A stretch of DNA of 64,000 nucleotides. Source: Salmonella phage vB_SenS-3. The notes below the pieces were generated by a model. That model ran no database searches, was not told the DNA's origin, and was given only the letters and a program-made list of their open reading frames with translations. The position numbers and the translations under genes are program-made. This document shows, piece by piece, positions 19,880-59,667 of this stretch; positions within the stretch are counted from its first letter, which is position 1; every line of letters starts with the position of its first letter. The stretch lies in sequence record OR896822.1; one strand, written 5' to 3'.

Positions 19880-19908
19880 TTGCTTTTTGCTGTAAACCTT
19901 GTTATAAT
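19880..19908 (+). promoter_or_regulatory. sigma70-type early promoter
   Basis: -35 TTGCTT, 17 bp, -10 TATAAT upstream of phoH. Confidence 0.6.
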
Positions 19909-19984
19909 ATATTTGTAAGTTGATAAACAAGATCTCTTTGTTGATCCTCTGTTAGAAGCGAAGTACACTATAGGAGTGTTATTT

Positions 19985-20737
19985 ATGGGAAAAGCACGTC
20001 AAAAAAGAGAGAACCGCAATGGTTCAAGAAAGCGTGGCAACAAGTATGATAGTAACGTAATTCAAGCAGATTTCTCTGGTGATTACGCCAATCCAGTTGC
20101 TAAATCCCTAGTTGGTAAAAACCGTGAGCAAAAATCATATATCAATATGATCAAGAACAACACAGTGACTGTTGGTATTGGTGAACCAGGTACTGGTAAA
20201 ACCTTTATTCCGTCCGTTCTTGCAGCTCAGGAACTCGTAGACATTCACTCAGATATTGAGCAAGTGATCCTCGTGCGTCCGAACGAACCTCTAGGTAAAT
20301 CTCTTGGTATGCTCCCAGGTGATCTGGCAGAAAAGCTAGAGCCTTGGTTGGAACCAATAGCCGATGGCATGAAATGGGCAATCGGTGATCACGCCTACAA
20401 AGGATATGTCGAACGTCAGAAAATTAAATTCCTGGCTATCGAACATGCCCGTGGCCGAACTTTCAACAACTCCTATGTAATTGTCGATGAAGCTCAGAAT
20501 ATCTCCGTTGAAGCAATGATCTGTCTCCTGACTCGTGTAGGACAAGATTGTCGTTTAATTATCTGTGGGGATATAGCGCAGAAAGACATCAAGGGTGATT
20601 CAGGTCTAGCACTTCTTATGGAAGTCTATGAGAAGTATGAAAACTCTCCTTTCTCTATGATCGAACTGATCGACAACGTTCGCTCACCAGAGTCTAAAGC
20701 ATTCTACGATATCTTTAAGGATATGGGGAAGGTGTAA
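19985..20737 (+). CDS. phoH: PhoH-like ATPase
   Basis: Walker A GEPGTGKT; ATG at 19985 preceded by RBS TAGGAG (listed ORF starts at GTG 19976). Confidence 0.85.
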   Translation: MGKARQKRENRNGSRKRGNKYDSNVIQADFSGDYANPVAKSLVGKNREQKSYINMIKNNTVTVGIGEPGTGKTFIPSVLAAQELVDIHSDIEQVILVRPNEPLGKSLGMLPGDLAEKLEPWLEPIADGMKWAIGDHAYKGYVERQKIKFLAIEHARGRTFNNSYVIVDEAQNISVEAMICLLTRVGQDCRLIICGDIAQKDIKGDSGLALLMEVYEKYENSPFSMIELIDNVRSPESKAFYDIFKDMGKV

Positions 20738-20738
20738 T

Positions 20739-20981
20739 ATGGGAAACGTCGTACATCTGCACCGCAAAACTAAGATTCACCGTACTTCACTGAGTGCTGC
20801 TAATATGATTACACGTAAGGAAGGGGAAGAAAGTCCTAAGACTACCCTAGCGTGGAAAATTGTAGCCTCTAATCCAAATCGGCCTTTTAATTATAACGAA
20901 TTGAGTACTTCTATAGACATTCTTATGGCTAAGGAAATACGACAGAAACTAACTGATATGACCGATAAACTTAAATGGTAA
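20739..20981 (+). CDS. hypothetical protein
   Basis: 80 aa ORF immediately after phoH. Confidence 0.5.
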   Translation: MGNVVHLHRKTKIHRTSLSAANMITRKEGEESPKTTLAWKIVASNPNRPFNYNELSTSIDILMAKEIRQKLTDMTDKLKW

Positions 20982-20989
20982 GACAGACG

Positions 20990-21022
20990 AGCCTGGGTAT
21001 GAAAATATCCGGGCTCTTTTTA
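20990..21022 (+). terminator. putative rho-independent terminator
   Basis: GAGCC...GGCTC hairpin followed by TTTTT. Confidence 0.5.
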
Positions 21023-21037
21023 TCTGTAAAATTGTAC

Positions 21038-21066
21038 TTGCAAAATGACCCAAAACAAAGTAGAAT
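21038..21066 (+). promoter_or_regulatory. sigma70-type promoter upstream of nrdA
   Basis: -35 TTGCAA, 17 bp, -10 TAGAAT. Confidence 0.5.
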
Positions 21067-21104
21067 ATTTCCTAAATCCTGATAACTACAAAAAGGAAAG
21101 CCAA

Positions 21105-23435
21105 ATGAGCCATCGCATCGAAAAAGTAATTAAACGTGACGGTACTGTTCAGGACTTTGCTCCTGAAAAACTCAATGATTGGGCTGCATGGGCATGTAAA
21201 GATACTGACGTAAGTTGGTCTGCCGTAGTTATGGCTGCCCTGAAAAATCTACCCAAAGGTGTTGTAGACTCCGATACACTCCAAGATGTGTTAATTAAAG
21301 CCGCTGAAGGTCTTATCAAAGACAACCCAGCATATGATACTGTAGCAAAGGAATTACGTCTTGCGCAGATGCGTAAACGCCTATATGATTCCTTTGAACC
21401 TCCTTCTCTGCGTTTCTTCCACGATCATATGATTCGTGTTGGCGCCTGGGAAGACATGAGTGCATGGATTAGCGATGATCAGTTTGATGCTCTGAATCAA
21501 GTTATTGATCATGATCGCGATCGTTTATTCACCAGTGGTGGACTGAAACAGTTCTTCGACAAGTATTCCCGTCGTAATATTGCAACTGGTGAAATTTATG
21601 AAACCCCGCAGTTTGCCTACATGGGTATGGCAATGGCGATGTTATCTCAACCTAACTGGACAATTCTCGATGCAATCGACCTCTACAACGCAATGTCACT
21701 CCATAAAATCAACGTGCCGACTCCACCTCTCGTGGGTCTTAGGAGCAGCGACCGCGGTTTTGCTTCTTGTTGTCTTGTTGATAGTACTGATACCCTCGAT
21801 TCAATCGACACAGCCGAGCACATCGTCTTCAAAATGGTCGCAGCCAGAGCGGGAATCGGGTATCATCTTGAAAGCCGATCAATTGCTGATCCGGTGCGAA
21901 ATGGGGCATTCCCGCATTCCGGAAAACTGCCATATTATCGACACATTGACCGATCAGTAAAAGCTAACACTCAGCAAACCCGTGGTGGTTCTGCTACTGT
22001 GTCTTACCCATACTTCGATCCTGAAATCATTCAGTTGATGCAGGTTAAGCAGCAACGTGCTACAGACGAGAATAAAATCGATAAGATGGATTACTCTCTG
22101 AGCTTTAACAACCTTCTGTTAAAACGTTACCTGAAAAATGAAGATATTACGCTAATGTCCTACTTCTACGCACCAGAAGTTCATGAAGCGTTTTATGGCG
22201 AAGATGAGGCTAAGTTTGAAGAAATCTACGTGGCAGCGGAGAAACGTGTGGCATCTCTTACAAAGATCGACCACGAAGGAAAAACAATTCCAGCAGCTCC
22301 TAGAATCTCTGCAAAAGAAATCCTAGATACTTGGTTACGTATCCGTATGGAAACAGGGCGTATGTATGCTCATCACATTGGTGAATCTAACCGTCATGGT
22401 AACTTCCTTGACCCGATTCGTATGACCAACCTTTGTGTTGAAATTACTCAGCCAACCCGTCCATTCCATCACATTACGGAGCTGTATAAGACCCAAGATC
22501 AGTTAGACGATATGCGTCCAGAAGATATTGGTGAAGTATCTCTGTGTAACTTAGGTGGTGTTGTACTAGGTCGTATGGAATCTCTGGCTGAATGGGAGAA
22601 AACTTGCTACATTCTTCTGAAATTCGTTGATACAATCATCGAGATTCAGGATTACCCATTCCCAACTATGGAGTACACGGCTAAGAAACGTCGTAACGTT
22701 GGTATTGGTCTGATGAACGCAGCAGGTGCAATGGCAGCAGAAGGTTTGGCTTACGAAGGTGTTGAAGCCCGTAACTGGATTCACCGTGAAGCTGAAAAGC
22801 TGTCCTACTTCCTACATAAAGCCTCTGTACGTCTGGCTAAAGAACAAGGTGCATGTGACTGGTTTAATCGTACTAAGCCTTCGCAAGGAACTCTGGTAAT
22901 CGACACGTACAAGAAAACTGTTGATGAACTGGTAACTGTAGGTCTAGAAATGGATTGGGAATCTCTGCGTGCAGATATTCTGAAATATGGTATGCGCAAC
23001 TCTGTTCTGACTGCTCAGATGCCAGGTGAAAGTTCCTCTGTACTGCTAGGTGTTACTAACTCTATCGAACCGCCCCGTAAGATCGTATCTATCAAGGGTA
23101 GTGCAGTGAATAAAGTAATTGCAATTGCTCCAGGTGCAACTGATTGGGATACATTAATGAGCTATAAACTGGCTTATGATGTAGATCGTATCGAGTGGAT
23201 CAAATGGGTAGCAACCATGCAGAAATTATTCAGCCAGTCTATCAGTACGAATATGTACTATGACTACACCAAGTTCGAGAATGAAATCATTCCCGGCCCA
23301 GTAGTAGTTCGTGACTTTATGACTGCTGTTAAGTACGGTTGGAAAACTTGGTACTACGCTAACTTCAACACTGAAAATGGTGGTGGAGCTGGTGAAGAAG
23401 CAGCAGGTTGTGCATCAGGTGGTTGTAACCTATAA
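21105..23435 (+). CDS. nrdA: ribonucleoside-diphosphate reductase large subunit (class Ia)
   Basis: N-terminal ATP-cone-like region; catalytic-site motif NLCVEI; start set at ATG 21105 after RBS AAGGAAAG. Confidence 0.9.
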   Translation: MSHRIEKVIKRDGTVQDFAPEKLNDWAAWACKDTDVSWSAVVMAALKNLPKGVVDSDTLQDVLIKAAEGLIKDNPAYDTVAKELRLAQMRKRLYDSFEPPSLRFFHDHMIRVGAWEDMSAWISDDQFDALNQVIDHDRDRLFTSGGLKQFFDKYSRRNIATGEIYETPQFAYMGMAMAMLSQPNWTILDAIDLYNAMSLHKINVPTPPLVGLRSSDRGFASCCLVDSTDTLDSIDTAEHIVFKMVAARAGIGYHLESRSIADPVRNGAFPHSGKLPYYRHIDRSVKANTQQTRGGSATVSYPYFDPEIIQLMQVKQQRATDENKIDKMDYSLSFNNLLLKRYLKNEDITLMSYFYAPEVHEAFYGEDEAKFEEIYVAAEKRVASLTKIDHEGKTIPAAPRISAKEILDTWLRIRMETGRMYAHHIGESNRHGNFLDPIRMTNLCVEITQPTRPFHHITELYKTQDQLDDMRPEDIGEVSLCNLGGVVLGRMESLAEWEKTCYILLKFVDTIIEIQDYPFPTMEYTAKKRRNVGIGLMNAAGAMAAEGLAYEGVEARNWIHREAEKLSYFLHKASVRLAKEQGACDWFNRTKPSQGTLVIDTYKKTVDELVTVGLEMDWESLRADILKYGMRNSVLTAQMPGESSSVLLGVTNSIEPPRKIVSIKGSAVNKVIAIAPGATDWDTLMSYKLAYDVDRIEWIKWVATMQKLFSQSISTNMYYDYTKFENEIIPGPVVVRDFMTAVKYGWKTWYYANFNTENGGGAGEEAAGCASGGCNL

Positions 23436-23444
23436 TAAAAACAA

Positions 23445-23470
23445 GGAGATCTTCGGGTCTCCTTTTTTCT
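23445..23470 (+). terminator. rho-independent terminator after nrdA
   Basis: GGAGATC-TTCG-GGTCTCC hairpin followed by TTTTTTCTTT. Confidence 0.6.
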
Positions 23471-23482
23471 TTGAAATTTTAC

Positions 23483-23511
23483 TTGCTAATCTCTACCAGA
23501 TTTGCTATAAT
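23483..23511 (+). promoter_or_regulatory. sigma70-type early promoter
   Basis: -35 TTGCTA, 17 bp, -10 TATAAT. Confidence 0.6.
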
Positions 23512-23542
23512 ATTCCTGAAATAGTGAGAAAGAGGAAAATCA

Positions 23543-26430: not shown

Positions 26431-26456
26431 AATAGCCCTTCGGGGCTATTATATTT
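26431..26456 (+). terminator. rho-independent terminator
   Basis: AATAGCCC-TTCG-GGGCTATT hairpin followed by AT-rich run. Confidence 0.55.
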
Positions 26457-26465
26457 AAATTTCAT

Positions 26466-26494
26466 TTGCTTACTGAGTGAAATTCAAATATAAT
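26466..26494 (+). promoter_or_regulatory. sigma70-type early promoter
   Basis: -35 TTGCTT, 17 bp, -10 TATAAT. Confidence 0.55.
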
Positions 26495-26524
26495 ATACTT
26501 CTAATTTGACAGAAGGATTTAATA

Positions 26525-27851: not shown

Positions 27852-27871
27852 TAAATAAATTAAAAATTCAC

Positions 27872-27900
27872 TTGCTTAAAGCCCTCGAATTTATTATAAT
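27872..27900 (+). promoter_or_regulatory. sigma70-type early promoter
   Basis: -35 TTGCTT, 17 bp, -10 TATAAT. Confidence 0.6.
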
Positions 27901-27927
27901 ATTCGTATTGAAAGTGAGGAGGGCTTT

Positions 27928-28206: not shown

Positions 28207-28222
28207 TTTTTAAAAAATTCAT

Positions 28223-28251
28223 TTGCTAAACGCTTCAAAATTTCGTATAAT
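28223..28251 (+). promoter_or_regulatory. sigma70-type early promoter
   Basis: -35 TTGCTA, 17 bp, -10 TATAAT, conserved leader. Confidence 0.6.
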
Positions 28252-28289
28252 ATATCTCATAAATTGATCAACAAAAAGGAAAACAAATA

Positions 28290-29366: not shown

Positions 29367-30068
29367 ATGAAATTCAAGCCCTTTGGTATGCTGGACATTG
29401 AATCTCTAGGTACTCCAGGAAATTGCGGTACTACTCATATTGCAATGCCTTCTTTCGCTTTTGTAGCGATGCACGGAATTGATAAAGATCCTGATCTGGT
29501 ATTCGTTACTCTAGACGTTCAAGATCAGCTTAATGCGGGTGCTAAGGTAACTGCCTCTACTATTGCATTCTGGATGGATCAAGCTAAAAACAGTCCATCT
29601 GCGCTCCATATTATGGAGGCTCTAAATGGTCGTAATCCTAAACTGATTGCCTTCCGTGATGGTAAGCATCACTGCACTAATGACGTAGGCTCTAATTATG
29701 CTGCCTTCTCTATGGCTCAGAACATTATGGAATTGTCTCTAGGAGATAATGCTCTGTATTATGGCAATGGCCCAGAGTTTGATATGACAATCTACTCTGC
29801 AAATACGTTCCATGCCGGAACCCATGAAGAAATAGTTCCGTGGAAATTCTGGAACTTAGGTAACGTTCGATCTTTCCGTAATCAGTGGATGCAAGCTGGT
29901 TATAGCTATAAAGATCTAGAAGCCGAAGGTGCTAGCTGGGCAAAAGCTAAAATGGAAAAGATGGACACCATTCGTTATGGAATCTATCCTGTGAAGCATG
30001 ATCCAGCATTCGATGCTTTAGTTGAAAGTTATTGTGTAGCCGTCATGATCGAAAAAATCAAAATTTGA
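29367..30068 (+). CDS. hypothetical protein (possible DEDD-type exonuclease-like fold)
   Basis: 233 aa; N-terminal LDIESLG weakly resembles exonuclease motif I; assignment tentative. Confidence 0.5.
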   Translation: MKFKPFGMLDIESLGTPGNCGTTHIAMPSFAFVAMHGIDKDPDLVFVTLDVQDQLNAGAKVTASTIAFWMDQAKNSPSALHIMEALNGRNPKLIAFRDGKHHCTNDVGSNYAAFSMAQNIMELSLGDNALYYGNGPEFDMTIYSANTFHAGTHEEIVPWKFWNLGNVRSFRNQWMQAGYSYKDLEAEGASWAKAKMEKMDTIRYGIYPVKHDPAFDALVESYCVAVMIEKIKI

Positions 30069-30069
30069 T

Positions 30070-30098
30070 TTGCTTTCAGCTCCAAAATTCTGTATAAT
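30070..30098 (+). promoter_or_regulatory. sigma70-type early promoter
   Basis: -35 TTGCTT, 17 bp, -10 TATAAT, conserved leader. Confidence 0.6.
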
Positions 30099-30138
30099 AT
30101 ATTCATAAATTTGAGAGAACAACAAAAGGAAAATAATT

Positions 30139-31013: not shown

Positions 31014-31403
31014 TGATTTAAAAGACTAGTAAATCGGTAGACGAAAGCCCAAGCATCTTACCTCGCAGCAGCGGTTGAAATACGAGGTTAAATAAGACCG
31101 CTGACCATACTATAAAGTATAATCTATTGGAGATTATCTTAATTTATTTTTCGGCAGATGTTGCATCTGTCAAAATAAAACAAGACGTCGTTGGTAGTAC
31201 CAACACAACTTCAAAGATCAACGCTCAAGTATGAAAGCTGAAAAGTTAAAAGCACTCAAACTTCTAACCTTCTAAAGCTAAAAGATGCAAAGTATTCGTT
31301 GATGATTCAAACCCTAGATCAAAGGTACATGGCTCATAAGATATGGCCTGTGGCGCCTCTAGGCTATTTATCGGTTTACTAGTTTCACAATTTAAAAATG
31401 TAT

Positions 31404-31432
31404 TTGCTAATTAGTTTAGTTTTCTGTATAAT
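31404..31432 (+). promoter_or_regulatory. sigma70-type early promoter
   Basis: -35 TTGCTA, 17 bp, -10 TATAAT. Confidence 0.6.
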
Positions 31433-31462
31433 ATATTTTTAAATTGATGAGACGAGGCTATT

Positions 31463-31785: not shown

Positions 31786-32235
31786 ATGAAGGCAGCTTTG
31801 CTTTTAATAGCTGCCCTAACCTATAGCTTCAATAGTCATGCTACCTACGACGCTAAACAGATTGATTGCATTGCAAAAAATGTCTATTTTGAGAGCCGAG
31901 GTGAGGGCACGAAGGGAATGGTTGCAGTTGCACAGGTCACCAAAAACCGTGTTAACTCTGGTACATTCCCGGATTCTTACTGTAAAGTAGTATATCAGTC
32001 TAACCAGTTCTCTTGGGTATCTAAGAGACCAAAAGTTGATAAAACCGATGCGGCTTGGCAAACTGCTAAGAATGTAGCTAGAGTGATATACTACGTTGAT
32101 TTACCCCATGATCCAACATATGGAGCGTTATACTTCCATAGTGGTAAAGAAAAGCCGTACTGGACGAAAACGTTCAAGAAAACAACTAAAATTCAAGGCC
32201 ACACGTTCTATAAGCCTGTGACTAAGAAAATTTAA
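31786..32235 (+). CDS. secreted SleB-like cell wall hydrolase domain protein
   Basis: signal peptide MKAALLLIAALTYSFNSHA; Hydrolase_2-like NVYFESRGEG...VAQVTKNR; ATG 31786 with RBS GGAG. Confidence 0.65.
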   Translation: MKAALLLIAALTYSFNSHATYDAKQIDCIAKNVYFESRGEGTKGMVAVAQVTKNRVNSGTFPDSYCKVVYQSNQFSWVSKRPKVDKTDAAWQTAKNVARVIYYVDLPHDPTYGALYFHSGKEKPYWTKTFKKTTKIQGHTFYKPVTKKI

Positions 32236-32243
32236 AAATTCAA

Positions 32244-32272
32244 TTGCTTTAAGCCTTAAAATTCTGTATAAT
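32244..32272 (+). promoter_or_regulatory. sigma70-type early promoter
   Basis: -35 TTGCTT, 17 bp, -10 TATAAT. Confidence 0.6.
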
Positions 32273-32304
32273 AACTGTATAAATTGATGAGAGGAAAGCG
32301 AACA

Positions 32305-32475: not shown

Positions 32476-32918
32476 TGGAAGAGAATATTCTAGATGTTTT
32501 GCGTAGGGCTTTGCAGGAATCCAAGTTTGATGGTTCTGATAAAGAAGTAGCTAAAAGCTACCAGACCATAATCGGAGATCTTCAGCGTGTTGATAAAGAC
32601 TTCATTACTTCTGAACAGTTTATATCTTATCTAAAAGCTCAACTGAAAAGCATTAATCAGACGAAAGCTAAACTTCACAGTCAAGATCTTGATAATTATA
32701 GCTTGCAGTCTGCTCAGTATGAATATATACTGAACAAATGGTTACAGCAGTATTTGCCTCCTCAGCTATCTGATTCTGAGATTCGCAAATACTTCGCAGA
32801 ATTAGTTAAGCTGAATCCTGGGATTACAAAGGGTATGCTGATGAAAGCGATTAAGGAAGAGTTTCCTGGTCGTTACGACGGTGGCATTGCTGCTCAGGTT
32901 GCTGGCGAATTTAATTAA
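32475..32918 (+). CDS. GatB/YqeY-like domain protein
   Basis: 147 aa; N- and C-terminal segments resemble the YqeY family. Confidence 0.55.
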   Translation: MEENILDVLRRALQESKFDGSDKEVAKSYQTIIGDLQRVDKDFITSEQFISYLKAQLKSINQTKAKLHSQDLDNYSLQSAQYEYILNKWLQQYLPPQLSDSEIRKYFAELVKLNPGITKGMLMKAIKEEFPGRYDGGIAAQVAGEFN

Positions 32919-32927
32919 AAATTAATT

Positions 32928-32956
32928 TGCTAAACGCTTCAAAATTCTGTATAATA
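32928..32956 (+). promoter_or_regulatory. sigma70-type early promoter directly abutting the HNH endonuclease ORF
   Basis: -35 TTGCTA, 17 bp, -10 TATAAT; ATG of 32962 lies 6 nt after the -10 with no RBS. Confidence 0.6.
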
Positions 32957-32961
32957 TATTC

Positions 32962-33444
32962 ATGAAAAGGAAAGAATACCCTACTAAAGAAATACTTGAA
33001 AAATATTTTGTAGCTGATCCTGATAATGGGATACTATATAGGAAAACAAAGAAAGGTTTGAAAGAGTGTTGTGCCAATAATAAGAAATCACATCCAGATG
33101 TGGGATTTCAGGGCGACACCTATCAACTGCATGTCTTATTATTTATTATGTACTATGGATATATGCCTGAAGAAGTAGATCATAAGGATACTAATCCTAG
33201 AAATAATAGGAAAAATAATCTAAGGGACGCCTCTAGATCGCAAAATAATGCGAATAGAAACCAACAATGCAATAATACTTCTTGGTACAAAGGAGTAAGT
33301 TGGGAAGGCTCTTCCTTGAGATACCAAGTAAGACATGAAGGAAAAAATTACAGTAAAAGAGGGTTTAAAACTGCGGAAGAGGCTTTCGAGGCCTCTAAGA
33401 TATTAAGAGAATCCTTACATAAAGAATTTACTAACTTTGGTTAG
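32962..33444 (+). CDS. HNH homing endonuclease with AP2 domain
   Basis: 160 aa; HNH core EEVDHKDTNPRNNRKNNL...N; AP2-like WYKGVSWEGSSLRYQVRHEGKNYSKRGFKTAEEA. Confidence 0.75.
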   Translation: MKRKEYPTKEILEKYFVADPDNGILYRKTKKGLKECCANNKKSHPDVGFQGDTYQLHVLLFIMYYGYMPEEVDHKDTNPRNNRKNNLRDASRSQNNANRNQQCNNTSWYKGVSWEGSSLRYQVRHEGKNYSKRGFKTAEEAFEASKILRESLHKEFTNFG

Positions 33445-35908: not shown

Positions 35909-36054
35909 GTATTTAAGGCAAAAGAAAAAGCCCATAAGTTATTCAACTAAGGTCTTTAGTATTTAATTCTTTAGAATCATATACTATTATTGCAGCAACA
36001 ACGTGCTAACCTTAAGTGCCCTGCGATTTTCCTCTAAAAAGTTAAAAAATTCGA

Positions 36055-36083
36055 TTGCTTGAATGCTAAATTCTCTGTATAAT
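36055..36083 (+). promoter_or_regulatory. sigma70-type early promoter
   Basis: -35 TTGCTT, 17 bp, -10 TATAAT, conserved leader TATAAATTTGAGAGAGGAATCAAAT. Confidence 0.6.
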
Positions 36084-36113
36084 ATATTTATAAATTTGAG
36101 AGAGGAATCAAAT

Positions 36114-37169
36114 ATGATTAAGACTGGTCTAGTAATTGGTAAGTTCGCACCATTAACGCGTGGTCATATTAACCTAATAAACACAGCAGCAACTATGTGT
36201 GAACGAGTTATTGTTGTAGTTAGTCATGATAATCGTTGGCTGGATAAGCAGAACACACGTGATAAGGAAGTATTACAGTTAAAGAATCGACTTCGTTGGT
36301 TAGAACAAACTTACGCGGATATTGAGCACATTTCGGTAGAGTACATTATTGAAGATGATATTCCTGAATATCCGAATGGTTGGCCGGAATATGCTAGAAT
36401 CCTTAATGAAAATTACGGACATTTGCCTGAGATCACCGTTTTCTCTAGCGAACTAGACTATGATGCAGAATATAAGAAATATCTGCCGAAGTTTGGTCAT
36501 TATATTGTAGATTCTGATCGGACTCGTGTTCCAATCTCAGCTACAATGATTCGTAATGATCTTATGAAGTATTGGGAGTTTCTTCCTAGCGTAGTTCGTA
36601 AAGATTACGTGCGTAAGGTTGTAATCATTGGGACTGAAAGCTCGGGAAAGACTACTTTAACAAAATACCTTGCGAAGCTATACAACACTTCGTGGGTAGA
36701 AGAATATGGTCGAACGTATTGTGAAGTTGATCTAGTTGGTAACGAAAATCTGCTTACCAGCGAAGATTATAGTAAAATTGCGTTCAGACACAAAGAGCTA
36801 GAGTTTGAAGCAGAACGTACTGCAAATAAGATCATGTTTGTGGATACAAATGCTTTTATTACTGAGTTCTACCACAGACTTTATGAACATAGTAAGAATC
36901 CTGTGGTTACAGCAATTGCAAAAGAAGAACATTATGATTTAGTAATTGTTCTAGCGCCTACTGTCAAGTGGGTAGATGATGGTTTACGTATTAACTCCGA
37001 TCGTTCAATTACTTCTGAACTATTCGAGCAGATGAAGAAAGAATTTCCAAATCAGTTCCCTGAAGGGCGTACTGTTTACATCGACTCTCCGGACTACAAA
37101 GTTCGTATGGACGAAGCAGTAAACGCAGTAGACTGGCTGATTCATCACTTTAACGTTGGAGAGTTTTAA
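36114..37169 (+). CDS. nadR: NadR-like bifunctional NMN adenylyltransferase / ribosylnicotinamide kinase
   Basis: N-terminal GKFAPLTRGHINLI (nucleotidyltransferase HxGH-type); C-terminal Walker A GTESSGKTT; ATG 36114 after conserved leader RBS. Confidence 0.8.
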   Translation: MIKTGLVIGKFAPLTRGHINLINTAATMCERVIVVVSHDNRWLDKQNTRDKEVLQLKNRLRWLEQTYADIEHISVEYIIEDDIPEYPNGWPEYARILNENYGHLPEITVFSSELDYDAEYKKYLPKFGHYIVDSDRTRVPISATMIRNDLMKYWEFLPSVVRKDYVRKVVIIGTESSGKTTLTKYLAKLYNTSWVEEYGRTYCEVDLVGNENLLTSEDYSKIAFRHKELEFEAERTANKIMFVDTNAFITEFYHRLYEHSKNPVVTAIAKEEHYDLVIVLAPTVKWVDDGLRINSDRSITSELFEQMKKEFPNQFPEGRTVYIDSPDYKVRMDEAVNAVDWLIHHFNVGEF

Positions 37170-37878: not shown

Positions 37879-37895
37879 TATACAGAAATTTTCAC

Positions 37896-37924
37896 TTGCT
37901 TAATATAGAAAATTTCTGTATAAT
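37896..37924 (+). promoter_or_regulatory. sigma70-type early promoter
   Basis: -35 TTGCTT, 17 bp, -10 TATAAT; leader identical to the nadR promoter leader. Confidence 0.6.
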
Positions 37925-37954
37925 ATATTTATAAATTTGAGAGAGGAATCAAAT

Positions 37955-38251
37955 ATGAAACGCATTGTACTTGCATTGACTCTAGTATCTACTTCTGTAT
38001 TTGCTGCTCCACAACAGGAACTTTGTCAAGTTCAAGTTTGTAATAAGCTAGAACGATTTACTCTAGACATTTGGTCCCACATTAAAGATAATATGGGTGA
38101 ACAGTGTTTTGATATTGTTCTGCCAAAAGAACAAGCTGTTCCTGGGGCTGTTCTCAGCTCAGAATCACGTTGGTGGCAAGGTTCTTCTATCAACCCAACT
38201 AAGAAGTCAGTGACACGTATCAAACAAGTATATCAGTGCAACGTTCAGTAA
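37955..38251 (+). CDS. secreted hypothetical protein
   Basis: signal peptide MKRIVLALTLVSTSVFAAP; paired cysteines. Confidence 0.5.
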   Translation: MKRIVLALTLVSTSVFAAPQQELCQVQVCNKLERFTLDIWSHIKDNMGEQCFDIVLPKEQAVPGAVLSSESRWWQGSSINPTKKSVTRIKQVYQCNVQ

Positions 38252-38259
38252 AATTTCAC

Positions 38260-38288
38260 TTGCTTAATGCCTAAATTTTCTGTATAAT
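38260..38288 (+). promoter_or_regulatory. sigma70-type early promoter
   Basis: -35 TTGCTT, 17 bp, -10 TATAAT. Confidence 0.6.
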
Positions 38289-38321
38289 ATATTCATAAAT
38301 TTGGAAGATTAGGAACTATTT

Positions 38322-39606: not shown

Positions 39607-39636
39607 CTTCTCCAAGCAGAAATTTTAAAAATGTAC

Positions 39637-39666
39637 TTGCTTTTTACTTAAGATTTCTGCTATAAT
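39637..39666 (+). promoter_or_regulatory. sigma70-type early promoter
   Basis: -35 TTGCTT, 18 bp, -10 TATAAT. Confidence 0.55.
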
Positions 39667-39695
39667 AGTTATATAAGTTGATGAGAGGAATCAGA

Positions 39696-39971: not shown

Positions 39972-40008
39972 CTGATACAGCACTTGAGCAAGTTCTTTAA
40001 AATTTGAC

Positions 40009-40038
40009 TTGCTCAAGTGCCTTAAAACTTGATATAAT
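40009..40038 (+). promoter_or_regulatory. sigma70-type promoter heading a tRNA transcription unit
   Basis: -35 TTGCTC, 18 bp, -10 TATAAT; about 120 nt leader then tRNA-Tyr. Confidence 0.55.
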
Positions 40039-40162
40039 AGTTACCTAATTTGGAAACATATCTGAATGAGAAGTAATTAAGCGAGTTGCTTTGAGGGATA
40101 AAGTCAGGATAGCCGGAAATATTCCACCTTGAGTTTAACCGACTTACTTTTCATTCAAATAT

Positions 40163-40504: not shown

Positions 40505-40777
40505 ATGCATCCTGAAAACTTCTTTATATACTGTACTAGTCCTTTGCTTAAACGCCGGATTAATAAAGTATATCACTACAGAGCTAGTCAACAGCCTTAT
40601 GTTTATGATTCTAGTGGAGATCATATTCCACTTGAGCAACTAGGGACTGATTATATGGTTTTGAAGCACTTTAATGAGGCGAAGATCTCTAGCGTTCATA
40701 ACCGACAAAACTCTAAAACGTGGTGGCATAAGAAGCGTAAGAAAGGCATCAAATTTCTTAAAAATGTAGTTGCTTAA
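40505..40777 (+). CDS. hypothetical basic protein
   Basis: ATG 40505 six nt after RBS AAGGAG, immediately downstream of the tRNA cluster. Confidence 0.45.
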   Translation: MHPENFFIYCTSPLLKRRINKVYHYRASQQPYVYDSSGDHIPLEQLGTDYMVLKHFNEAKISSVHNRQNSKTWWHKKRKKGIKFLKNVVA

Positions 40778-40798
40778 ATCCTTAAAGTTCTGTATAAT
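40770..40798 (+). promoter_or_regulatory. sigma70-type early promoter
   Basis: -35 TTGCTT, 17 bp, -10 TATAAT; -35 overlaps stop region of 40505..40777. Confidence 0.6.
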
Positions 40799-40826
40799 TA
40801 TTACATAAATTGAACTGGAGAACTAG

Positions 40827-42627: not shown

Positions 42628-42878
42628 AATTTAGGTTTCTGCTTCCTAGAGAACGGACTCCTAGATAAACAAGGCGATGAGTTTCCGGCCGGTTCTAGTC
42701 GCTGAAAATCCTCCCGACCAGGTAGGTGTAGGTAAACGAAAGTTTACTTATTGAGTAGGTTCCGATAGATCGGCGGATCTATTCTGGCATTTAAGAGAAG
42801 TCTCGCAAACTTCTTTGTCAGCAGAGCGTTTGAAGCGTGAGGTGGCCTACACAATAAGTAAATTTATTAAAAACTCAT

Positions 42879-42907
42879 TTGCTATTTCACTTAATTCTCT
42901 TTATAAT
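42879..42907 (+). promoter_or_regulatory. sigma70-type promoter heading a tRNA transcription unit
   Basis: -35 TTGCTA, 17 bp, -10 TATAAT; tRNA-Pro begins about 33 nt downstream. Confidence 0.6.
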
Positions 42908-42939
42908 ATATCTTATAAAGTGAGTTAACAAAGAATATT

Positions 42940-43471: not shown

Positions 43472-43825
43472 ATGCAATTATCAAGCAAGATTCAAGGCTA
43501 TTTTGGTCATGTAACAATGGAGTTCGCTATCTCTAAAGGTTGGGATTTCGAGCAAGATCTAGCTGAGTTCTACAAAGATATTGATCTGAACGTACCATAC
43601 ATGGGACTCTCCACTGGTCAAGAGATCACAGAAGGCGATGTGTTCAAGGCAAGTCAAGGTGAGGTAACACCTAGTTTTGCCAAGTTCTGGTTAGGACTTA
43701 CTTTGAAGGAAGATGCACCAGAGGATGGTGTGGTTATGCAGAGTATGCACTCTGGAAGCTCTGATTACCTTTTCGTTAGCGACGTTAAGGAACTACAAGA
43801 AATCGCTAAAAATGTACTTGCTTGA
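43472..43825 (+). CDS. hypothetical protein
   Basis: ATG 43472 after RBS AAGGAA (listed ORF starts at TTG 43466); acidic protein. Confidence 0.5.
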   Translation: MQLSSKIQGYFGHVTMEFAISKGWDFEQDLAEFYKDIDLNVPYMGLSTGQEITEGDVFKASQGEVTPSFAKFWLGLTLKEDAPEDGVVMQSMHSGSSDYLFVSDVKELQEIAKNVLA

Positions 43826-43846
43826 TGCTTAATTTCTTGTTATAAT
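43818..43846 (+). promoter_or_regulatory. sigma70-type promoter overlapping the 3' end of CDS 43472..43825
   Basis: -35 TTGCTT, 17 bp, -10 TATAAT; leader then forms an 8-bp hairpin GATGAGGA/TCCTCATC. Confidence 0.55.
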
Positions 43847-44108
43847 ATTTATATAAATTGATGAGGAGAAATCCTCATCAAAGTTCACTAAGGTATTAGC
43901 TCGACCTAGGGCTGGCTGCCAAAAAGCACAATTGCAATTAGACCCCTAATGGCGGGGGATACTTTGCAATAAGTTCTAGATTAGTCCACTAGATTCAGTG
44001 GCAACTGAATAGTGTATCGGGTTTGTGAAGAGCGGTTATCCTCTACTGGCTAATGTCTGAGGGTAATACGCACACCGAGCTAATAGCCTTAGTAAACTTA
44101 AAGATTTT

Positions 44109-45199: not shown

Positions 45200-45524
45200 A
45201 ATCTTGAAGTATGCCGGAATCGGTAGACGGGGCTTCCTAAAGGGCGTAAGGGGAACATCCACTCCTCATAAGATACCCGAAAACGAGGCTGAGATAACTG
45301 GTCTATCTCGTGAAGGTTCGAGTCCTTCTGCTTCTTGATATTCATCAATGGCTCAAAGTGTAACGGTGCTATTTGATGCTCTTAGTAAGACTTTCCCGAC
45401 ATGCGTTCGGGAGTAAGCTGCTAAGGCTAGAGTAGAAGAGTTTCGGAGAGCCGCCACAATTGAAGTCTTTAGAATGGGTATCGCCCTTTAGCCCCTCCGA
45501 AAGGGATAACTAGAGATTTCAATT

Positions 45525-46632: not shown

Positions 46633-46647
46633 AAATTTAAAAATTCA

Positions 46648-46677
46648 TTTGCCTTCTCTCTTATTTCTTGTTATAAT
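46648..46677 (+). promoter_or_regulatory. sigma70-type early promoter
   Basis: -35 TTGCCT, 18 bp, -10 TATAAT, conserved leader. Confidence 0.55.
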
Positions 46678-46707
46678 ATTTATATAAATTAATGAGAGGG
46701 AAACCAA

Positions 46708-49278: not shown

Positions 49279-49295
49279 TTTCATAAATAATTCAT

Positions 49296-49324
49296 TTGCT
49301 AAAACCCTCTCCTTTTGATATAAT
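49296..49324 (+). promoter_or_regulatory. sigma70-type early promoter
   Basis: -35 TTGCTA, 17 bp, -10 TATAAT, conserved leader. Confidence 0.6.
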
Positions 49325-49354
49325 ATTTATATAAATTGATGAGAGGGCTTTGAA

Positions 49355-50869: not shown

Positions 50870-50985
50870 AGAACTCGCGTAGGACCGAGTTGCGTCACCT
50901 GCAACTGTTACGGATAAGGGAGTCGTGCCCCTTAGTGCGGTAAGTGGTGAGTTGGTCGCTGACCTCAACTTTAACTGGAGATATC

Positions 50986-51333
50986 ATGAGCTTTATTTTA
51001 TTCATTGTAGCAGCATGGTTTATTATTGGTTTAGGCTATGCTATTGCAGTTATTCGTCATCTGGATGAATATTCTGCTGAATGGTTTATTAAGTACCTAC
51101 GTTTAGACGATCAAGAACACGAGTTCGACAGTGCTGAGGAAAGACAGGCTGTCCAGTCAATGACTCCCAAAGAATGCTTGCTTTACATGCGTGTAATTGG
51201 TTTCTTTGGACTGTTGGTAGCGGGGCCGCTAGGTCTTACTATTGCTCCCTACAAAGAAGTTGTTGACGACATTAAACTATGGAGAACCGCTGGATCGCTA
51301 CGTCGTGCTAGAGAATTAAGTAAACAAGAGTGA
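50986..51333 (+). CDS. small membrane protein
   Basis: ATG 50986 after RBS GGAG (listed ORF starts at GTG 50944); two hydrophobic helices. Confidence 0.45.
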   Translation: MSFILFIVAAWFIIGLGYAIAVIRHLDEYSAEWFIKYLRLDDQEHEFDSAEERQAVQSMTPKECLLYMRVIGFFGLLVAGPLGLTIAPYKEVVDDIKLWRTAGSLRRARELSKQE

Positions 51334-51402: not shown

Positions 51403-51418
51403 TGTAATAAAATTTCAG

Positions 51419-51447
51419 TTGCTCAGATGCCACAAGTATTGTATAAT
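51419..51447 (+). promoter_or_regulatory. sigma70-type early promoter
   Basis: -35 TTGCTC, 17 bp, -10 TATAAT. Confidence 0.6.
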
Positions 51448-51478
51448 ATGTTTATAGATTGAGGCAAAAGGATAATTT

Positions 51479-55488: not shown

Positions 55489-55529
55489 AAGCAAAGGGGG
55501 CTTTAAAAACTTAATGATAGGAGAAAGCC

Positions 55530-55946: not shown

Positions 55947-55959
55947 TATAAAAAAGTAG

Positions 55960-55988
55960 TTGACTTTCCGCTGAAATTTTTATATAAT
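55960..55988 (+). promoter_or_regulatory. sigma70-type early promoter
   Basis: -35 TTGACT, 17 bp, -10 TATAAT. Confidence 0.6.
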
Positions 55989-56021
55989 ATTTGTATAAAT
56001 TGAATCAGAGGAGTTTCACAA

Positions 56022-56432: not shown

Positions 56433-56715
56433 ATTAATATATCTATTAAAAGGTTCCACTTGCAACCCATGTAAACTTTTCGAGCCTGTATTCGATAAAG
56501 TAGTACAGGGCTACAGTCTAGAAGTTCATAAAGAGACTGATAATACAGAACTTATGCAGAAGTTCGGTGTTAGACAAGTTCCTGTAGTAGTTCTAGCAGA
56601 TCGTCTACCGAATGGTCGTGTGGAAGCCAACCACATTCTGATTGATCGTCAGCTTCGTAAGGAAACTATGCACGATGCAATCAAAAACTTCCTGGAAGAT
56701 AATCCAGAAGATTAA
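56425..56715 (+). CDS. thioredoxin/glutaredoxin-like (CxxC) protein
   Basis: 96 aa; CNPC redox motif near N-terminus. Confidence 0.55.
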   Translation: MSKLIYLLKGSTCNPCKLFEPVFDKVVQGYSLEVHKETDNTELMQKFGVRQVPVVVLADRLPNGRVEANHILIDRQLRKETMHDAIKNFLEDNPED

Positions 56716-56724
56716 TAAATCCAA

Positions 56725-56752
56725 CCCAGATCTTAGCTGATCTGGGTTTTTC
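56725..56752 (+). terminator. rho-independent terminator
   Basis: CCCAGATC-TTAGCT-GATCTGGG hairpin followed by TTTTTCTTT. Confidence 0.6.
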
Positions 56753-56756
56753 TTTA

Positions 56757-56785
56757 TTTGCTAAACGCTTAAAATTTTGATATAA
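56757..56785 (+). promoter_or_regulatory. sigma70-type early promoter
   Basis: -35 TTGCTA, 17 bp, -10 TATAAT. Confidence 0.6.
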
Positions 56786-56817
56786 TATACCTATAAACTT
56801 GAGAAAGGAACCAGATA

Positions 56818-57681: not shown

Positions 57682-58049
57682 TGGAACGTGAAGAACGTTA
57701 TGTAGTAATAAAGTTGTCTGATATTGAGAAAGCCCTAGAATTAGGGCATATCACTCAAAGCAACTTTACCACTTTGGAACATATCTTATCCAAACTGTGG
57801 TATAGTCGAGCACAACGTGGAAAAGAGGATCTCAAAACCGTTGTGGTAGAGCATGACTGGCCAGAGTATGAAGAAGTCTGGAAAATGCTAGAGAATCGTG
57901 TTGATTTTGAGCAAGCACGACAAGAAGAACTTGACAAAGGATATCAAGAAGCAAAAGAACATCATGAGATTCATGATGAAATATTCAAACTTCGTGGTAT
58001 TAGTAGTTATTGTCAGGGTTGGAATAAATATGCGGAGGAAGTTCTGTAA
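57681..58049 (+). CDS. hypothetical protein
   Basis: 122 aa acidic ORF. Confidence 0.5.
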   Translation: MEREERYVVIKLSDIEKALELGHITQSNFTTLEHILSKLWYSRAQRGKEDLKTVVVEHDWPEYEEVWKMLENRVDFEQARQEELDKGYQEAKEHHEIHDEIFKLRGISSYCQGWNKYAEEVL

Positions 58050-58567
58050 TGAAAGTTTATTTTTGGAGCGACCTACACTTAGGGCATGTTAATATCCCTA
58101 AGTTTCGAACTATGTTCTCTAGTATGGAAGAGCACGACGAATTTATCATGGATACTATTACGTCTATGAAGGATAAACGTACTGTATTTTTCATTTTAGG
58201 GGACGCATTTGTATCTAGAAAGGGTCTGGAGAAGTTTGAAAAACTATTTAGCAATGTTAGGACTACTTTAGTTCTGGGAAACCACGATTTGGAACGAGAA
58301 GGCTTATCTTTTACAGACTTAGTAGGTGTAGTAGATAATGTGCAGTCTTTAGTTAAATATAAGAACTTCTGGCTTTCTCATGCCCCCGTGCACCCAGGAG
58401 AGTTAAGGGGTAAAAAGAATTTACATGGGCATACTCACTTTGAATTAATGGGAGATCCACGTTACATTAACGTTTGTGTTGAGTATGCAAAGTCGCCTGT
58501 ACGATTAGAAGATATTATGAGTGGTAAGTATACTTCTCATGATAAAACTAGCTGGATGTTGGAATGA
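58049..58567 (+). CDS. metallophosphoesterase
   Basis: 172 aa; motifs SDLHLGH, GNHD, GHTH. Confidence 0.7.
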   Translation: MKVYFWSDLHLGHVNIPKFRTMFSSMEEHDEFIMDTITSMKDKRTVFFILGDAFVSRKGLEKFEKLFSNVRTTLVLGNHDLEREGLSFTDLVGVVDNVQSLVKYKNFWLSHAPVHPGELRGKKNLHGHTHFELMGDPRYINVCVEYAKSPVRLEDIMSGKYTSHDKTSWMLE

Positions 58568-59031
58568 TATGGATACAAATTACAGAATATCCTAACTATG
58601 CTGTATCAGAAGATGGTGAAGTTAAGAATATATCACGAGGTAGACTTTTAACTCCCCATATAGATAGAGATGGATATGTTATTTATACACTATATAACAA
58701 GGGTAAACCTAAAAAGTTAAAAGCCCATAGATTAGTCGCGCAATACCATCTAGATTTACCAGATAACTGGGAAAACCTACCTGTTAATCACAAGGATGGG
58801 GATAAGCAGAATAACCATAAATCTAATGTAGAATGGTCTACTATACTGGAAAATAATAGACATACTAGAATTAATGGGTTAACTACAGATGCGCTTACAG
58901 TAGAACAAGTATGGGAAATTAGAAGTCTGCTTATACAAGGCAGATCTAATACCGAAATTGCCAAAATCTATAAAGTAGATCAGTCTACTATCAGTAATAT
59001 AAAGACAGGAAGAACGTGGAATTATGTTTGA
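58564..59031 (+). CDS. HNH homing endonuclease (NUMOD-like N-terminus, C-terminal HTH)
   Basis: 155 aa; HNH_3-like AHRLVAQYH...VNHKDGDKQNNH..N; C-terminal NTEIAKIYKVDQSTISNI HTH. Confidence 0.7.
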   Translation: MIWIQITEYPNYAVSEDGEVKNISRGRLLTPHIDRDGYVIYTLYNKGKPKKLKAHRLVAQYHLDLPDNWENLPVNHKDGDKQNNHKSNVEWSTILENNRHTRINGLTTDALTVEQVWEIRSLLIQGRSNTEIAKIYKVDQSTISNIKTGRTWNYV

Positions 59032-59133
59032 TTTTGATGGCATGGCTCGTGAGATATTTATAGCAATAGGGATAGTAGTTCTTATCTCTTTCTTTACGGG
59101 CCTAGGCTTAGGCCTTTTATTTTAAAACTTCAT

Positions 59134-59162
59134 TTGCTAAAATGCTTAGTTTTCTGTATAAT
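59134..59162 (+). promoter_or_regulatory. sigma70-type early promoter
   Basis: -35 TTGCTA, 17 bp, -10 TATAAT. Confidence 0.6.
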
Positions 59163-59193
59163 TACTTTATAAATTGATGAGAAGGAATCAAAA

Positions 59194-59625
59194 ATGCAAA
59201 AGATTGATAAAGCACTTTTAATCGCAACAGCAGATAAGTTTGAGCAAGTTAAAACTACTTTTAAGGCAGTCTTTCAGTCCTATGTTCAAGACAAATCGAA
59301 CCCGATTTCTGAGCGTTTGATGATGTGGGAATGTTTTACTTGCAATGCTCTGCTAATTTCCGATTATAGGGGAGAAGTATCTGAGGAATTGCAGGAGATC
59401 TTTATTAATGAAGATACTACACGCTATCAGTTAGTGAACTTCCAGGATCTAGCCGAGCAAGTTATTCCAGATGATCTTTGGGACAAGTATTACGGTGATC
59501 CTGAAGAAGATGGTATGGAACCTGAGAAGTGCATCGAACTGATCTGTAAGGATTATCCTGAAATTGCTGAGAAATTTGAGTTAGTATTTGCTTCGGAGTT
59601 CTCAGGTTTCGTTAACGATTGGTAA
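59194..59625 (+). CDS. hypothetical protein
   Basis: 143 aa acidic ORF. Confidence 0.5.
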   Translation: MQKIDKALLIATADKFEQVKTTFKAVFQSYVQDKSNPISERLMMWECFTCNALLISDYRGEVSEELQEIFINEDTTRYQLVNFQDLAEQVIPDDLWDKYYGDPEEDGMEPEKCIELICKDYPEIAEKFELVFASEFSGFVNDW

Positions 59626-59638
59626 ATAAATAATTTAC

Positions 59639-59667
59639 TTGCTAAATGTCCAGAAATCTTATATAAT
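59639..59667 (+). promoter_or_regulatory. sigma70-type early promoter
   Basis: -35 TTGCTA, 17 bp, -10 TATAAT. Confidence 0.6.

Follow-up and report, generated by a model that had tools for sequence, protein, structure and literature searches.

In a T5-like phage of Salmonella, the early region holds 31 copies of a 65-bp element in which the strong early promoter typical of T5-like phages is joined to a short leader and a ribosome-binding site. The window analysed here comprises 64,000 nt of Salmonella phage vB_SenS-3 (OR896822.1) and is 99.9% identical to PMBT36; its analysis established the sequence anatomy of the element, the number of copies, their agreement with the strand of the genes that they precede, their orthology to named T5 promoters and the pattern of their conservation. 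Such elements are already known: descriptions go back to the 1980s, and the genome record of T5 lists them as promoters. Very probably every copy serves the host sigma-70 RNA polymerase as an early promoter of the T5 class and is fused to a minimal leader, within which the ribosome-binding site lies. A sequence-only reading of this DNA had proposed a sigma-70 promoter joined to a conserved leader with a Shine-Dalgarno sequence, which agrees with the published T5 promoters.

Copies in the window

A scan for the pattern TTGCTW-N17-TATAAT with at most one mismatch returned 28 matches, compared to 1.64 expected and a maximum of 5 in shuffled sequence, and the first match started at 19880 while the last ended at 59667, exactly the span that the sequence-only reading had given. 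When a two-block position matrix was scanned over both strands of the window with shuffled sequence as a control, it found exactly 24 copies on the plus strand and seven on the minus strand; all 31 scored between 34 and 62 bits, nothing scored between 20 and 34 bits, and the shuffled maximum was 5.5. The earlier estimates of about 25 plus-strand and six minus-strand copies were thus correct in substance. An independent repeat search recovered the same family (e.g. D1, with 14 copies of 73 nt), and the orientation of every copy is that of its downstream genes. A generic TTGACA/TATAAT scan of the window for sigma-70 promoters stayed at chance level (49 against 52.8 and 55 against 54.4) and was uninformative because TTGCTT agrees with TTGACA at only three of six positions.

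Each module extends from about -47 to +18 around the predicted transcription start and is designated below by the position of its TATAAT. The plus-strand series begins with module 19903 (19868..19932; 47.0 bits), which lies upstream of phoH with a 70-nt leader and is the ortholog of a T5 'putative promoter' at 45431, and continues with module 23506 (23471..23535) upstream of nrdB, directly preceded by a terminator hairpin (23443-23464). Modules 26489 (26454..26518; 41.2 bits), 27895 (27860..27924; T5 ortholog at 38131), 28246 (28211..28275; the ortholog of T5 P-H207, 92% identical to T5) and 30093 (30058..30122; 55.7 bits) follow, then 31427 (31392..31456) and 32267 (32232..32296), in which an ATG at +9 is out of frame and in frame, respectively. 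The usual leader is absent from module 32950 (32915..32979), where transcription is predicted to start on the first base of the start codon, ATG, of an HNH endonuclease ORF (32962-33444). Module 36078 (36043..36107), upstream of nadR-pnuC, has 44 nt identical to module 37919 (37884..37948), which is succeeded by 38283 (38248..38312), by 39661 (39625..39690; 18-bp spacer, ATG at +9 in frame, 58.9 bits) and by 40033 (39997..40062; 18-bp spacer, -35 TTGCTC), the latter leading to tRNA-Tyr. Beyond module 40793 (40758..40822), the ortholog of T5 P13a (42902; 42867..42931) leads to tRNA-Pro and that of P13b (43841; 43806..43870) to a structured non-coding RNA and tRNA-Ala. The remaining plus-strand copies are 46672 (46637..46701), 49319 (49284..49348), 51442 (51407..51471), 55983 (55948..56012; -35 TTGACT, 38.6 bits), 56781 (56746..56810) and 59157 (59122..59186), these two abutted by terminators at 56723-56748 and 59098-59115, respectively, and finally 59662 (59627..59691).

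On the minus strand, modules 17690 (17661..17725) and 8144 (8115..8179) are accompanied by 14378 (14349..14413; -35 TTGCAG), which is 97% identical to its T5 ortholog, a 'putative promoter' at 50951, by the orthologs of T5 P-N25 (10384; 10355..10419), P-N26 (9361; 9332..9396) and P-K28a (ligase; 6778; 6749..6813), and by module 2765 (2736..2801; 18-bp spacer, -35 TTGCCG) upstream of DNA polymerase, which is 97% identical to the T5 promoter at 62954.

Conserved promoter architecture

Between a point 12 nt upstream of the -35 hexamer and +17 the information content exceeds background, and after +18 it drops to zero; the conserved block, at about -47 to +17, bears out the claim of a module of roughly 70 bp that is conserved beyond its -35 and -10 hexamers. 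At about -47 to -37 lies an A/T block (AAAAaTTtxA) that looks like an UP element, and the positions that precede the -35 hexamer by 12 to 2 nt hold 0.5-1.5 bits each with the consensus TTAAAAATTTA, corresponding to the A/T block (AAAAATT) at -43. Of the -35 hexamers, 15 read TTGCTT, 10 read TTGCTA and six are one-mismatch variants, with TTGC present in 30 of the 31; the spacer that separates them from the -10 hexamer is 17 bp long in 28 copies and 18 bp in three, and it is T-rich at its 3' end. TATAAT, itself a selection criterion, is perfect in all copies and followed by A in 28 of them, and the matrix scan gave no high-scoring variants that lack it. The assertion that TG generally occupies -15/-14 did not hold, since TGnTATAAT is found in only 12 of the 31 copies, TG abuts TATAAT in 12 and no TG occurs in seven; TG is no defining feature, and the modules do not form an extended -10 (TGn) promoter class. 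The A/T-rich discriminator follows the pattern ATATTY or ATTTAT (28 of the 31 copies have A at -6, and 26 have T at -3), its commonest, ATATT-type forms being ATTTAT (6), ATATTT (5) and ATATTC (3), whereas three other promoters in the window (19664-, 19762+ and 54358+) lack an ATATT-type discriminator.

The transcription start was assigned to the seventh nucleotide after TATAAT, as in T5 N25 (PMC7472727), and is a predicted A. With this assignment the ATATTY sequence is not transcribed, and the shared part of the transcripts therefore amounts to about 17 nt, not to the first 30 nt of the early mRNAs as had been supposed. Nor are the leaders identical, as the same reading held: at least 27 different 17-mers occur among the 31 copies, and the mean identity between paralogs is 61% over -47..+18. 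Positions +1..+7 (AUAAAUU) hold 7.4 bits and +8..+18 hold 7.6 bits, the latter as a purine run (GAGAGAGGA or GAUGAGAGGA) that also serves as the Shine-Dalgarno sequence. In 21 of the 31 copies the start codon falls at +22 to +28 (leaders of 21-27 nt), each with a Shine-Dalgarno sequence 5-10 nt before the ATG, while five copies (2765, 9361, 14378, 19903 and 40033) have long or atypical leaders. The purine tract reaches 7.6 bits when the copies are aligned to the transcription start but 5.6 bits when they are aligned to the start codon, and this closer registration to the start site than to the ATG fits an initial transcribed sequence that aids promoter escape (PMC12464699).

Relation to the early promoters of T5 and its relatives

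In the T5 record, AY692264, these elements appear as promoter features of 64-85 bp, among them P-N25, P-N26, P-K28a/b, P-H207, P-D/E33, P13a and P13b, and syntenic alignment paired modules 10384-, 9361-, 6778-, 28246+, 42902+ and 43841+ with N25, N26, K28a, H207, P13a and P13b, respectively, as orthologs. The mean identity of the modules to their T5 orthologs is 92.5%, and for N25 and K28a identity reaches 100% across the module, compared to 86-95% in the flanks (86% for N25). Across genera, positional orthologs are 89-93% identical, their flanks 82-90%, and each promoter keeps its own spacer and leader. The vB_SenS-3 modules share with the T5 early promoters (Gentz & Bujard, 1985, as cited in PMC7472727) the A/T block at -43, TTGCTT or TTGCTA, a spacer of 17-18 bp, TATAAT, the ATATT discriminator and the AUAAAUU-purine leader, and they occupy orthologous positions ahead of orthologous genes. 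Nothing substantive sets the two apart, the phage studied here having a Salmonella host and belonging to the genus Epseptimavirus, with a few extra or missing copies in the tRNA and nadR regions.

Similarly, 32 promoters with TTGCTw / TATAATA, a 17-18 bp spacer, AAAAATT at -43 and TAAATT at +1 were described in AKFV33, matching the vB_SenS-3 modules in consensus and copy number (PMC3326045). The genome papers on T5-like phages differ from the present analysis in that they do not include the registration of the purine tract to the start site or the comparison of ortholog and paralog conservation. Wang et al. 2005 (Virology 332:45) reportedly gave the motif as AAA{3,4T}nTTGCTT{17,18n}TATAATA{12,13W}{10R}. 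In a pattern scan of viral contigs there was, among the matches listed, no hint of the module outside the T5-like group, and most matches lay in contigs of 104-128 kb, a T5-like size; an Rfam search of the whole window identified tRNAs only, with no family for the leader or for the RNA that follows module 43841.

Start site, promoter strength and the roles of the initial transcribed sequence and the discriminator are taken from the literature on T5 N25 and would apply to vB_SenS-3 by analogy. N25 is limited by promoter escape, a step that its initial transcribed sequence accelerates about 10-fold, and with +3..+20 replaced the yield of full-length RNA fell about 10-fold (PMC12464699, citing Kammerer et al. 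1986). The conserved +1..+17 of the modules corresponds to the A/T- and purine-rich sequence shown to speed escape in the comparison of N25 with N25antiDSR (PMC12464699), a function demonstrated for N25 and extended to the other 30 copies by sequence similarity only. Polymerase would accordingly be expected to bind the modules very tightly and to be released quickly by the initial transcribed sequence, and conservation would run into the transcript because tight-binding promoters need fast escape. Moreover, the ATATT discriminator, which is common to all T5 early promoters and distinguishes early from late ones (TATAATAGATTCAT at -12..+2 of N25; PMC7472727), may mark the early temporal class here as well. 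We infer that all copies in vB_SenS-3 are active and of the early class; since only 11 of 19 in-vitro T5 promoters tested gave primer-extension products in infected cells (PMC7472727), some of them may be weak or silent. A literature search for a genome-wide start-site or RNA-seq study of T5 found nothing relevant. If active, the 31 copies would divide the early region into numerous short units from which mRNAs and tRNAs are transcribed.

Alternative roles of the repeated modules

The shared leader had been thought a possible target of common translational or RNase control. In that case an RNase or a translational repressor, encoded by phage or host, would recognise the AUAAAUU-GAGAGGA common to all early mRNAs and bring about their joint shut-off, by analogy with T4 RegB, which cleaves GGAG in early Shine-Dalgarno sequences. 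We know of no factor that targets early leaders in T5. About 17 nt of transcript are conserved over 31 units, the purine tract is longer than the Shine-Dalgarno signal ahead of internal genes, and T5 shuts off its early expression as infection proceeds (PMC7472727), all of which speaks for such a role. However, the purine tract is in register with the start site and not with the ATG, the same nucleotides have been shown to act in N25 promoter escape (PMC12464699), the leaders are as variable as described above, and the tRNA-driving modules retain the AUAAA part while losing the Shine-Dalgarno sequence. In addition, no conserved secondary structure was seen in the leaders, and the folding energy of -22..+23 around start codons did not differ between module genes and internal genes (p=0.36). 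We found no evidence for this kind of control and consider it quite unlikely. Regulation of the first gene through the ATG at +9, which would begin a short upstream ORF or extend the N-terminus, is more improbable still, to the point of being barely credible. The upstream ATG-AGA-GGA inside the Shine-Dalgarno region, reported earlier as in frame, is indeed present in nine of the 31 copies, and the same variant occurs in T5 orthologs, but it is in frame in only four of the eight coding cases, opens ORFs of 4-23 codons out of frame in the other four and lies in a non-coding transcript in the ninth. It sits 8 nt from the 5' end with no Shine-Dalgarno sequence upstream, and the leader variant TTTGAGAGAGG, which has no ATG, is equally conserved. 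The copies thus show neither a ribosome-binding site of their own for a leader peptide nor a conserved frame, and the upstream ATG comes incidentally with one leader variant (TTGATGAGAGG vs TTTGAGAGAGG).

The modules had also been suggested as a possible recombination scaffold for gene shuffling. They would then act as portable homology blocks between which recombination shuffles, inserts or deletes gene cassettes in the manner of the promoter-stem-loop cassettes (PeSLs) of T4-type phages. Like PeSLs, the modules repeat a strong early sigma-70 promoter many times over in a gene-dense, variable early region (PMC2839356, PMC4122927), some abut terminators, at least six adjoining a hairpin as PeSLs do (PMC2839356), and the gene content between copies varies. 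Modules 36078 and 37919, with their 44 identical nt, flank nadR-pnuC, and in Kenya-K43 an unrelated 170-aa ORF stands instead between the conserved modules 36078 and 38283. Against six relatives, structural breakpoints were 2.7-fold enriched in the zones from -60 to +35 (15 of 108 clusters vs 5.2% of the sequence) and fell at the module edges (-58..-50 or -1..+29); edge breakpoints are, however, expected anyway because an insertion between promoter and gene fits only in the 25-nt leader. With gene junctions mapped by a simple ORF heuristic, a breakpoint was present at 14 of 24 junctions with a module and at 46 of 93 without one (Fisher p=0.50), or at 14 of 24 and 15 of 27 when only gaps of at least 40 nt were counted (p=1.0), so that indels and replacements show no excess at the modules over other gene junctions. 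Paralogs, at 61% average identity, are far less alike than positional orthologs (89-93%), which keep their own spacers, and this argues against homogenisation or concerted evolution; 22-24 of the 24 plus-strand modules are at a kept position in four Epseptimavirus and Tequintavirus relatives. At the nrdB promoter, where relatives have an HNH endonuclease gene of 523-533 bp inserted between -5 and +14, neither junction of the one insert examined is a module repeat. A terminator-like hairpin within 75 nt upstream accompanies 6 of the 31 copies and lies outside the conserved block, and the modules, positionally stable and without an excess of breakpoints over other junctions, differ in this from a promoter and stem-loop cassette of the PeSL type. 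Breakpoints, junction counts, ortholog and paralog identities and positional conservation among the six relatives together led us to reject recombination between modules as a general mechanism, which we regard as unlikely. The modules do appear as fixed points flanking differing cassettes, such as nadR-pnuC versus a Toprim-like ORF, and free-standing HNH homing endonuclease genes recur at module edges, in one case with a predicted mRNA that starts at the ATG. It is doubtful whether, besides their promoter role, the modules now and then act as landing pads where genes enter and leave Demerecviridae genomes; if they did, T5-like phages might have their own version of the PeSL shuffling of T4, or homing endonucleases might favour sites close to promoters.

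Implications

The reading of the modules as T5-class early promoters carries little weight as a discovery because their architecture is the textbook T5 one, from which the N25 promoter used in expression vectors derives. Its value lies in annotation: the two-block matrix places all 31 predicted early starts with no ambiguous calls, corrects mis-called gene starts, such as that of PMBT36 nadR, which is annotated as beginning within its own promoter, and flags non-coding transcripts in the tRNA region. The conservation of spacer and leader across genera (89-93% vs 82-90% in the flanks) and the registration of the purine tract to the start site are a small quantitative addition to what is known of these promoters, which are probably inherited vertically and maintained by purifying selection.

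Identity of the Repeated Module

A search of the window for TTGCTW-N17-TATAAT with at most one mismatch returned 28 matches against 1.64 expected, the first beginning at 19880 and the last ending at 59667, exactly the span given by the sequence-only reading. When every TATAAT was used as an anchor and its flanks inspected, and a two-block matrix permitting 16-18 bp spacers was then applied, exactly 24 plus-strand and seven minus-strand copies were recovered at 34-62 bits, in keeping with the earlier counts of about 25 and six. No scores fell between 20 and 34 bits, and the maximum in shuffled sequence was 5.5 bits. All copies are oriented like the genes around them, and a repeat search found the same family independently (D1, with 14 copies of 73 nt, plus D2, D4, D7 and D8). 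The initial observation is accurate and highly non-random.

Judging by the annotation of Salmonella phage PMBT36, which, like vB_SenS-3, is 99.9% identical over a 6-kb piece of the window region (hundreds of T5-like phages also match), the window is the T5 early region. As far as about 19.3 kb the minus strand encodes DNA polymerase, primase, ligase and nrdD, and from there the plus strand carries phoH, nrdAB, dihydrofolate reductase, thymidylate synthase, RNase H, many small ORFs and a large cluster of 28 tRNAs; the sign of the GC skew flips at ~20 kb, where transcription diverges. Over the homologous 50 kb, the T5 st0 record (AY692264) has 26 annotated promoter features of 64-85 bp, including the named promoters P-N25, P-N26, P-K28a/b, P-H207, P-D/E33, P13a and P13b, and these features share the module sequence. 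Syntenic alignment pairs modules 10384(-) and 6778(-), named like the others by the start of TATAAT, with P-N25 and P-K28a, both with 100% identity over the module, and further pairs 9361(-) with P-N26, 28246(+) with P-H207, 42902(+) with P13a and 43841(+) with P13b. The repeated module is the already well characterised T5 early promoter, and its observation here is a rediscovery. The motif of Wang et al. 2005 (Virology 332:45) reportedly includes W-rich and R-rich downstream tracts. In the T5-like phage AKFV33, the genome paper gives 32 promoters whose consensus joins TTGCTw to TATAATA through a spacer of 17-18 bp, with AAAAATT in an A/T-rich region at -43 and TAAATT in the region at +1 (PMC3326045). 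Klimuk et al. state that the discriminator of every T5 early promoter contains ATATT and proposed that through it the phage protein gpT5.026 acts differently on early and late promoters (PMC7472727).

Three other good sigma-70 promoters in the window lack the early-class discriminator and leader. Their TATAAT starts are 19664(-), a perfect TTGACA-17-TATAAT before nrdD; 19762(+), TTGCCA-17-TATAAT with a GC-rich discriminator (CACACGCCCG); and 54358(+), TTGTAA-17-TATAAT-GGTAGT upstream of the genes for holin and endolysin, which matches a T5 'putative promoter' at 20998. These promoters may be of another temporal class.

Conservation and Role of the Leader

Information content per position exceeds background starting 12 nt upstream of the -35 hexamer, where the consensus is TTAAAAATTTA, and also covers both hexamers and the T-rich 3' end of the spacer. 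TATAAT is followed by six conserved bases (ATATTY) and then by 17 nt more, consisting of ATAAATT plus GAGAGAGGA or GATGAGAGGA, beyond which the information content is zero; conservation thus reaches well past the -35 and -10 hexamers, as had been described. However, the leaders are similar rather than identical, with at least 27 different 17-mers at +1 to +17 and a mean pairwise identity of 61% (maximum 83%) between -47 and +18. Since TATAATAGATTCAT, the non-template sequence of T5 N25, spans -12 to +2 in the published numbering (PMC7472727), the six bases that follow TATAAT represent an untranscribed discriminator, and by the same numbering the common transcribed part amounts to ~17 nt instead of the 30 nt first proposed. 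The TG reported at -15/-14 occurs there in 12 copies, while in another 12 it abuts TATAAT and in seven it is missing.

The module very probably works as an integrated expression signal, in which very strong polymerase binding would come from a UP-like A/T block together with a near-consensus -35 at optimal spacing from a perfect -10. Clearance of the promoter by the tightly bound polymerase would be made possible by the A/T discriminator and by the first 17 nucleotides of the transcript, which are rich in A/T and purines. The purine run would double as the Shine-Dalgarno (SD) sequence of a start codon located about 24 nt into the transcript. Work of the Hsu laboratory, after Kammerer et al. 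1986, showed that the N25 open complex is extremely stable and that promoter escape is the limiting step; escape was fastest with the native initial transcribed sequence, which is rich in A/T and purines, and replacing +3 to +20 reduced full-length RNA about 10-fold (PMC12464699). In the window, the purine tract holds 7.6 bits when aligned on the start site (+8 to +18) versus 5.6 bits when aligned on the ATG (-18 to -5), and it is longer than the SD signal preceding internal genes (n=91). This registration with the start site supports a transcriptional reason for leader conservation. Local folding around the start codon did not differ between module genes and internal genes.

An upstream in-frame ATG-AGA-GGA had also been ascribed to the leader. 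The motif is present in nine of the 31 copies and confined to one of the two leader variants; it is in frame in four copies, out of frame in four and on an ORF-less transcript in one, and its ATG lies 8 nt from the 5' end without a preceding ribosome-binding site. The proposed additions to the promoter, namely this upstream ATG, a common RNase or translational target and a recombination scaffold, fail the available tests or are without supporting evidence.

Sequences Downstream of the Modules

A start codon (ATG, save for one TTG) follows 21-27 nt past the predicted start in 21 of the 31 copies, with an SD 5-10 nt before it. Leaders of 32-70 nt are found in five copies (28246, 30093, 9361, 2765 and 19903), and copies 40033, 42902 and 43841 precede tRNAs or non-coding sequence. 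From module 43841 to tRNA-Ala (43853-44108(+)), no ORF was found and Rfam returned no family. This stretch is 76% homologous to the T5 region after P13b annotated as misc_RNA 'RNA2H', and its predicted fold (-94.7 kcal/mol, z=-7.1), far better than those of shuffles, opens with the hairpin GATGAGGA-GAAA-TCCTCATC. Module 14378(-) (14349-14413) falls within an ORF annotated as a CDS in PMBT36 (14208-14600). Its conservation with T5 is 97%, and the T5 annotation treats it as an intergenic promoter (50951-51018) separated by a 470-nt gap from the D2 helicase gene; the PMBT36 CDS may be spurious. At module 32950, the ATG of an HNH endonuclease ORF (32962-33444(+); Pfam HNH_3, E=2.3e-12) coincides exactly with the predicted +1 (TATAAT-ATATTC-ATG), from which the mRNA would be leaderless; in place of this ORF, relatives carry 175-209 bp of unrelated sequence from +4 on.

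Modules and Gene Exchange

A role of the modules as recombination scaffolds for gene shuffling predicts that gene-content differences between related phages break there. The window was compared with PMBT36, rokbiter, S.Kent 1-2-1 and AKM_HA2021_32, which belong or are close to Epseptimavirus, and with the Tequintavirus phages Kenya-K43 and T5 st0. Chained alignments to these six relatives gave 108 breakpoint clusters between 19001 and 63600, of which 15 lie within -60 to +35 of module starts (13.9% versus 5.2% of the sequence), all at module edges (-58 to -50 or -1 to +29). However, no excess was found per gene junction (14/24 with a module versus 46/93 without, Fisher p=0.50) or among junctions with gaps of at least 40 nt (14/24 versus 15/27, p=1.0). 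Gene content shifts at gene boundaries generally, and an insertion separating a promoter from its gene can only fall within the short leader. With T5, positional orthologs share 92.5% identity (86% in the flanks); the values are 89% (82% in the flanks) for Kenya-K43 and 92% (90% in the flanks) for AKM_HA2021_32, compared with 61% among paralogous modules inside the window; each copy retains its own spacer and leader, indicating that copies are not homogenised by exchange. In the four non-deleted relatives, positional orthologs exist for 22-24 of the 24 plus-strand modules. For the T5 st0 locus the number is 12, and seven of its eight unmatched modules fall inside a roughly 10-kb stretch that is without counterpart in that locus and includes the annotated st0 deletion site. 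Junction counts, identities and conserved positions all argue against the scaffold, and the behaviours that define the promoter-stem-loop (PeSL) cassettes of T4-type phages (PMC2839356) are absent from the modules.

The sole suggestive case for module shuffling is found around nadR-pnuC, which is flanked by modules 36078 and 37919 (36045-36117 and 37886-37958) sharing 44 identical nucleotides (TCTGTATAAT...ATGA); in Kenya-K43 an unrelated 170-aa ORF lies between the conserved modules 36078 and 38283. This ORF has a Toprim-like motif (VGDNDPAGEKFA; reverse-complemented locus 17239-17900). Free-standing genes for HNH homing endonucleases, about 480-530 bp long, were observed directly at the edge of a module four times independently across the relatives: at -5 to +14 of the nrdB promoter (window 23513-23532), at -55 of the module with predicted +1 at 27907 in PMBT36 (window 27852), at +1 of module 32950 in the window itself (around 32966) and at -53 of the module with predicted +1 at 49331 in AKM_HA2021_32 (matching window 49278). 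For the insert at the nrdB promoter, the one examined, the two junctions are not module repeats.

Implications for Annotation

The nadR-like CDS of PMBT36 (36063-37169, corresponding to window 36063) has its annotated start inside the promoter, whose -35 hexamer is at 36055-36060. The true start is likely the ATG at 36114, which has a consensus SD, and module positions could mend such gene-start calls.
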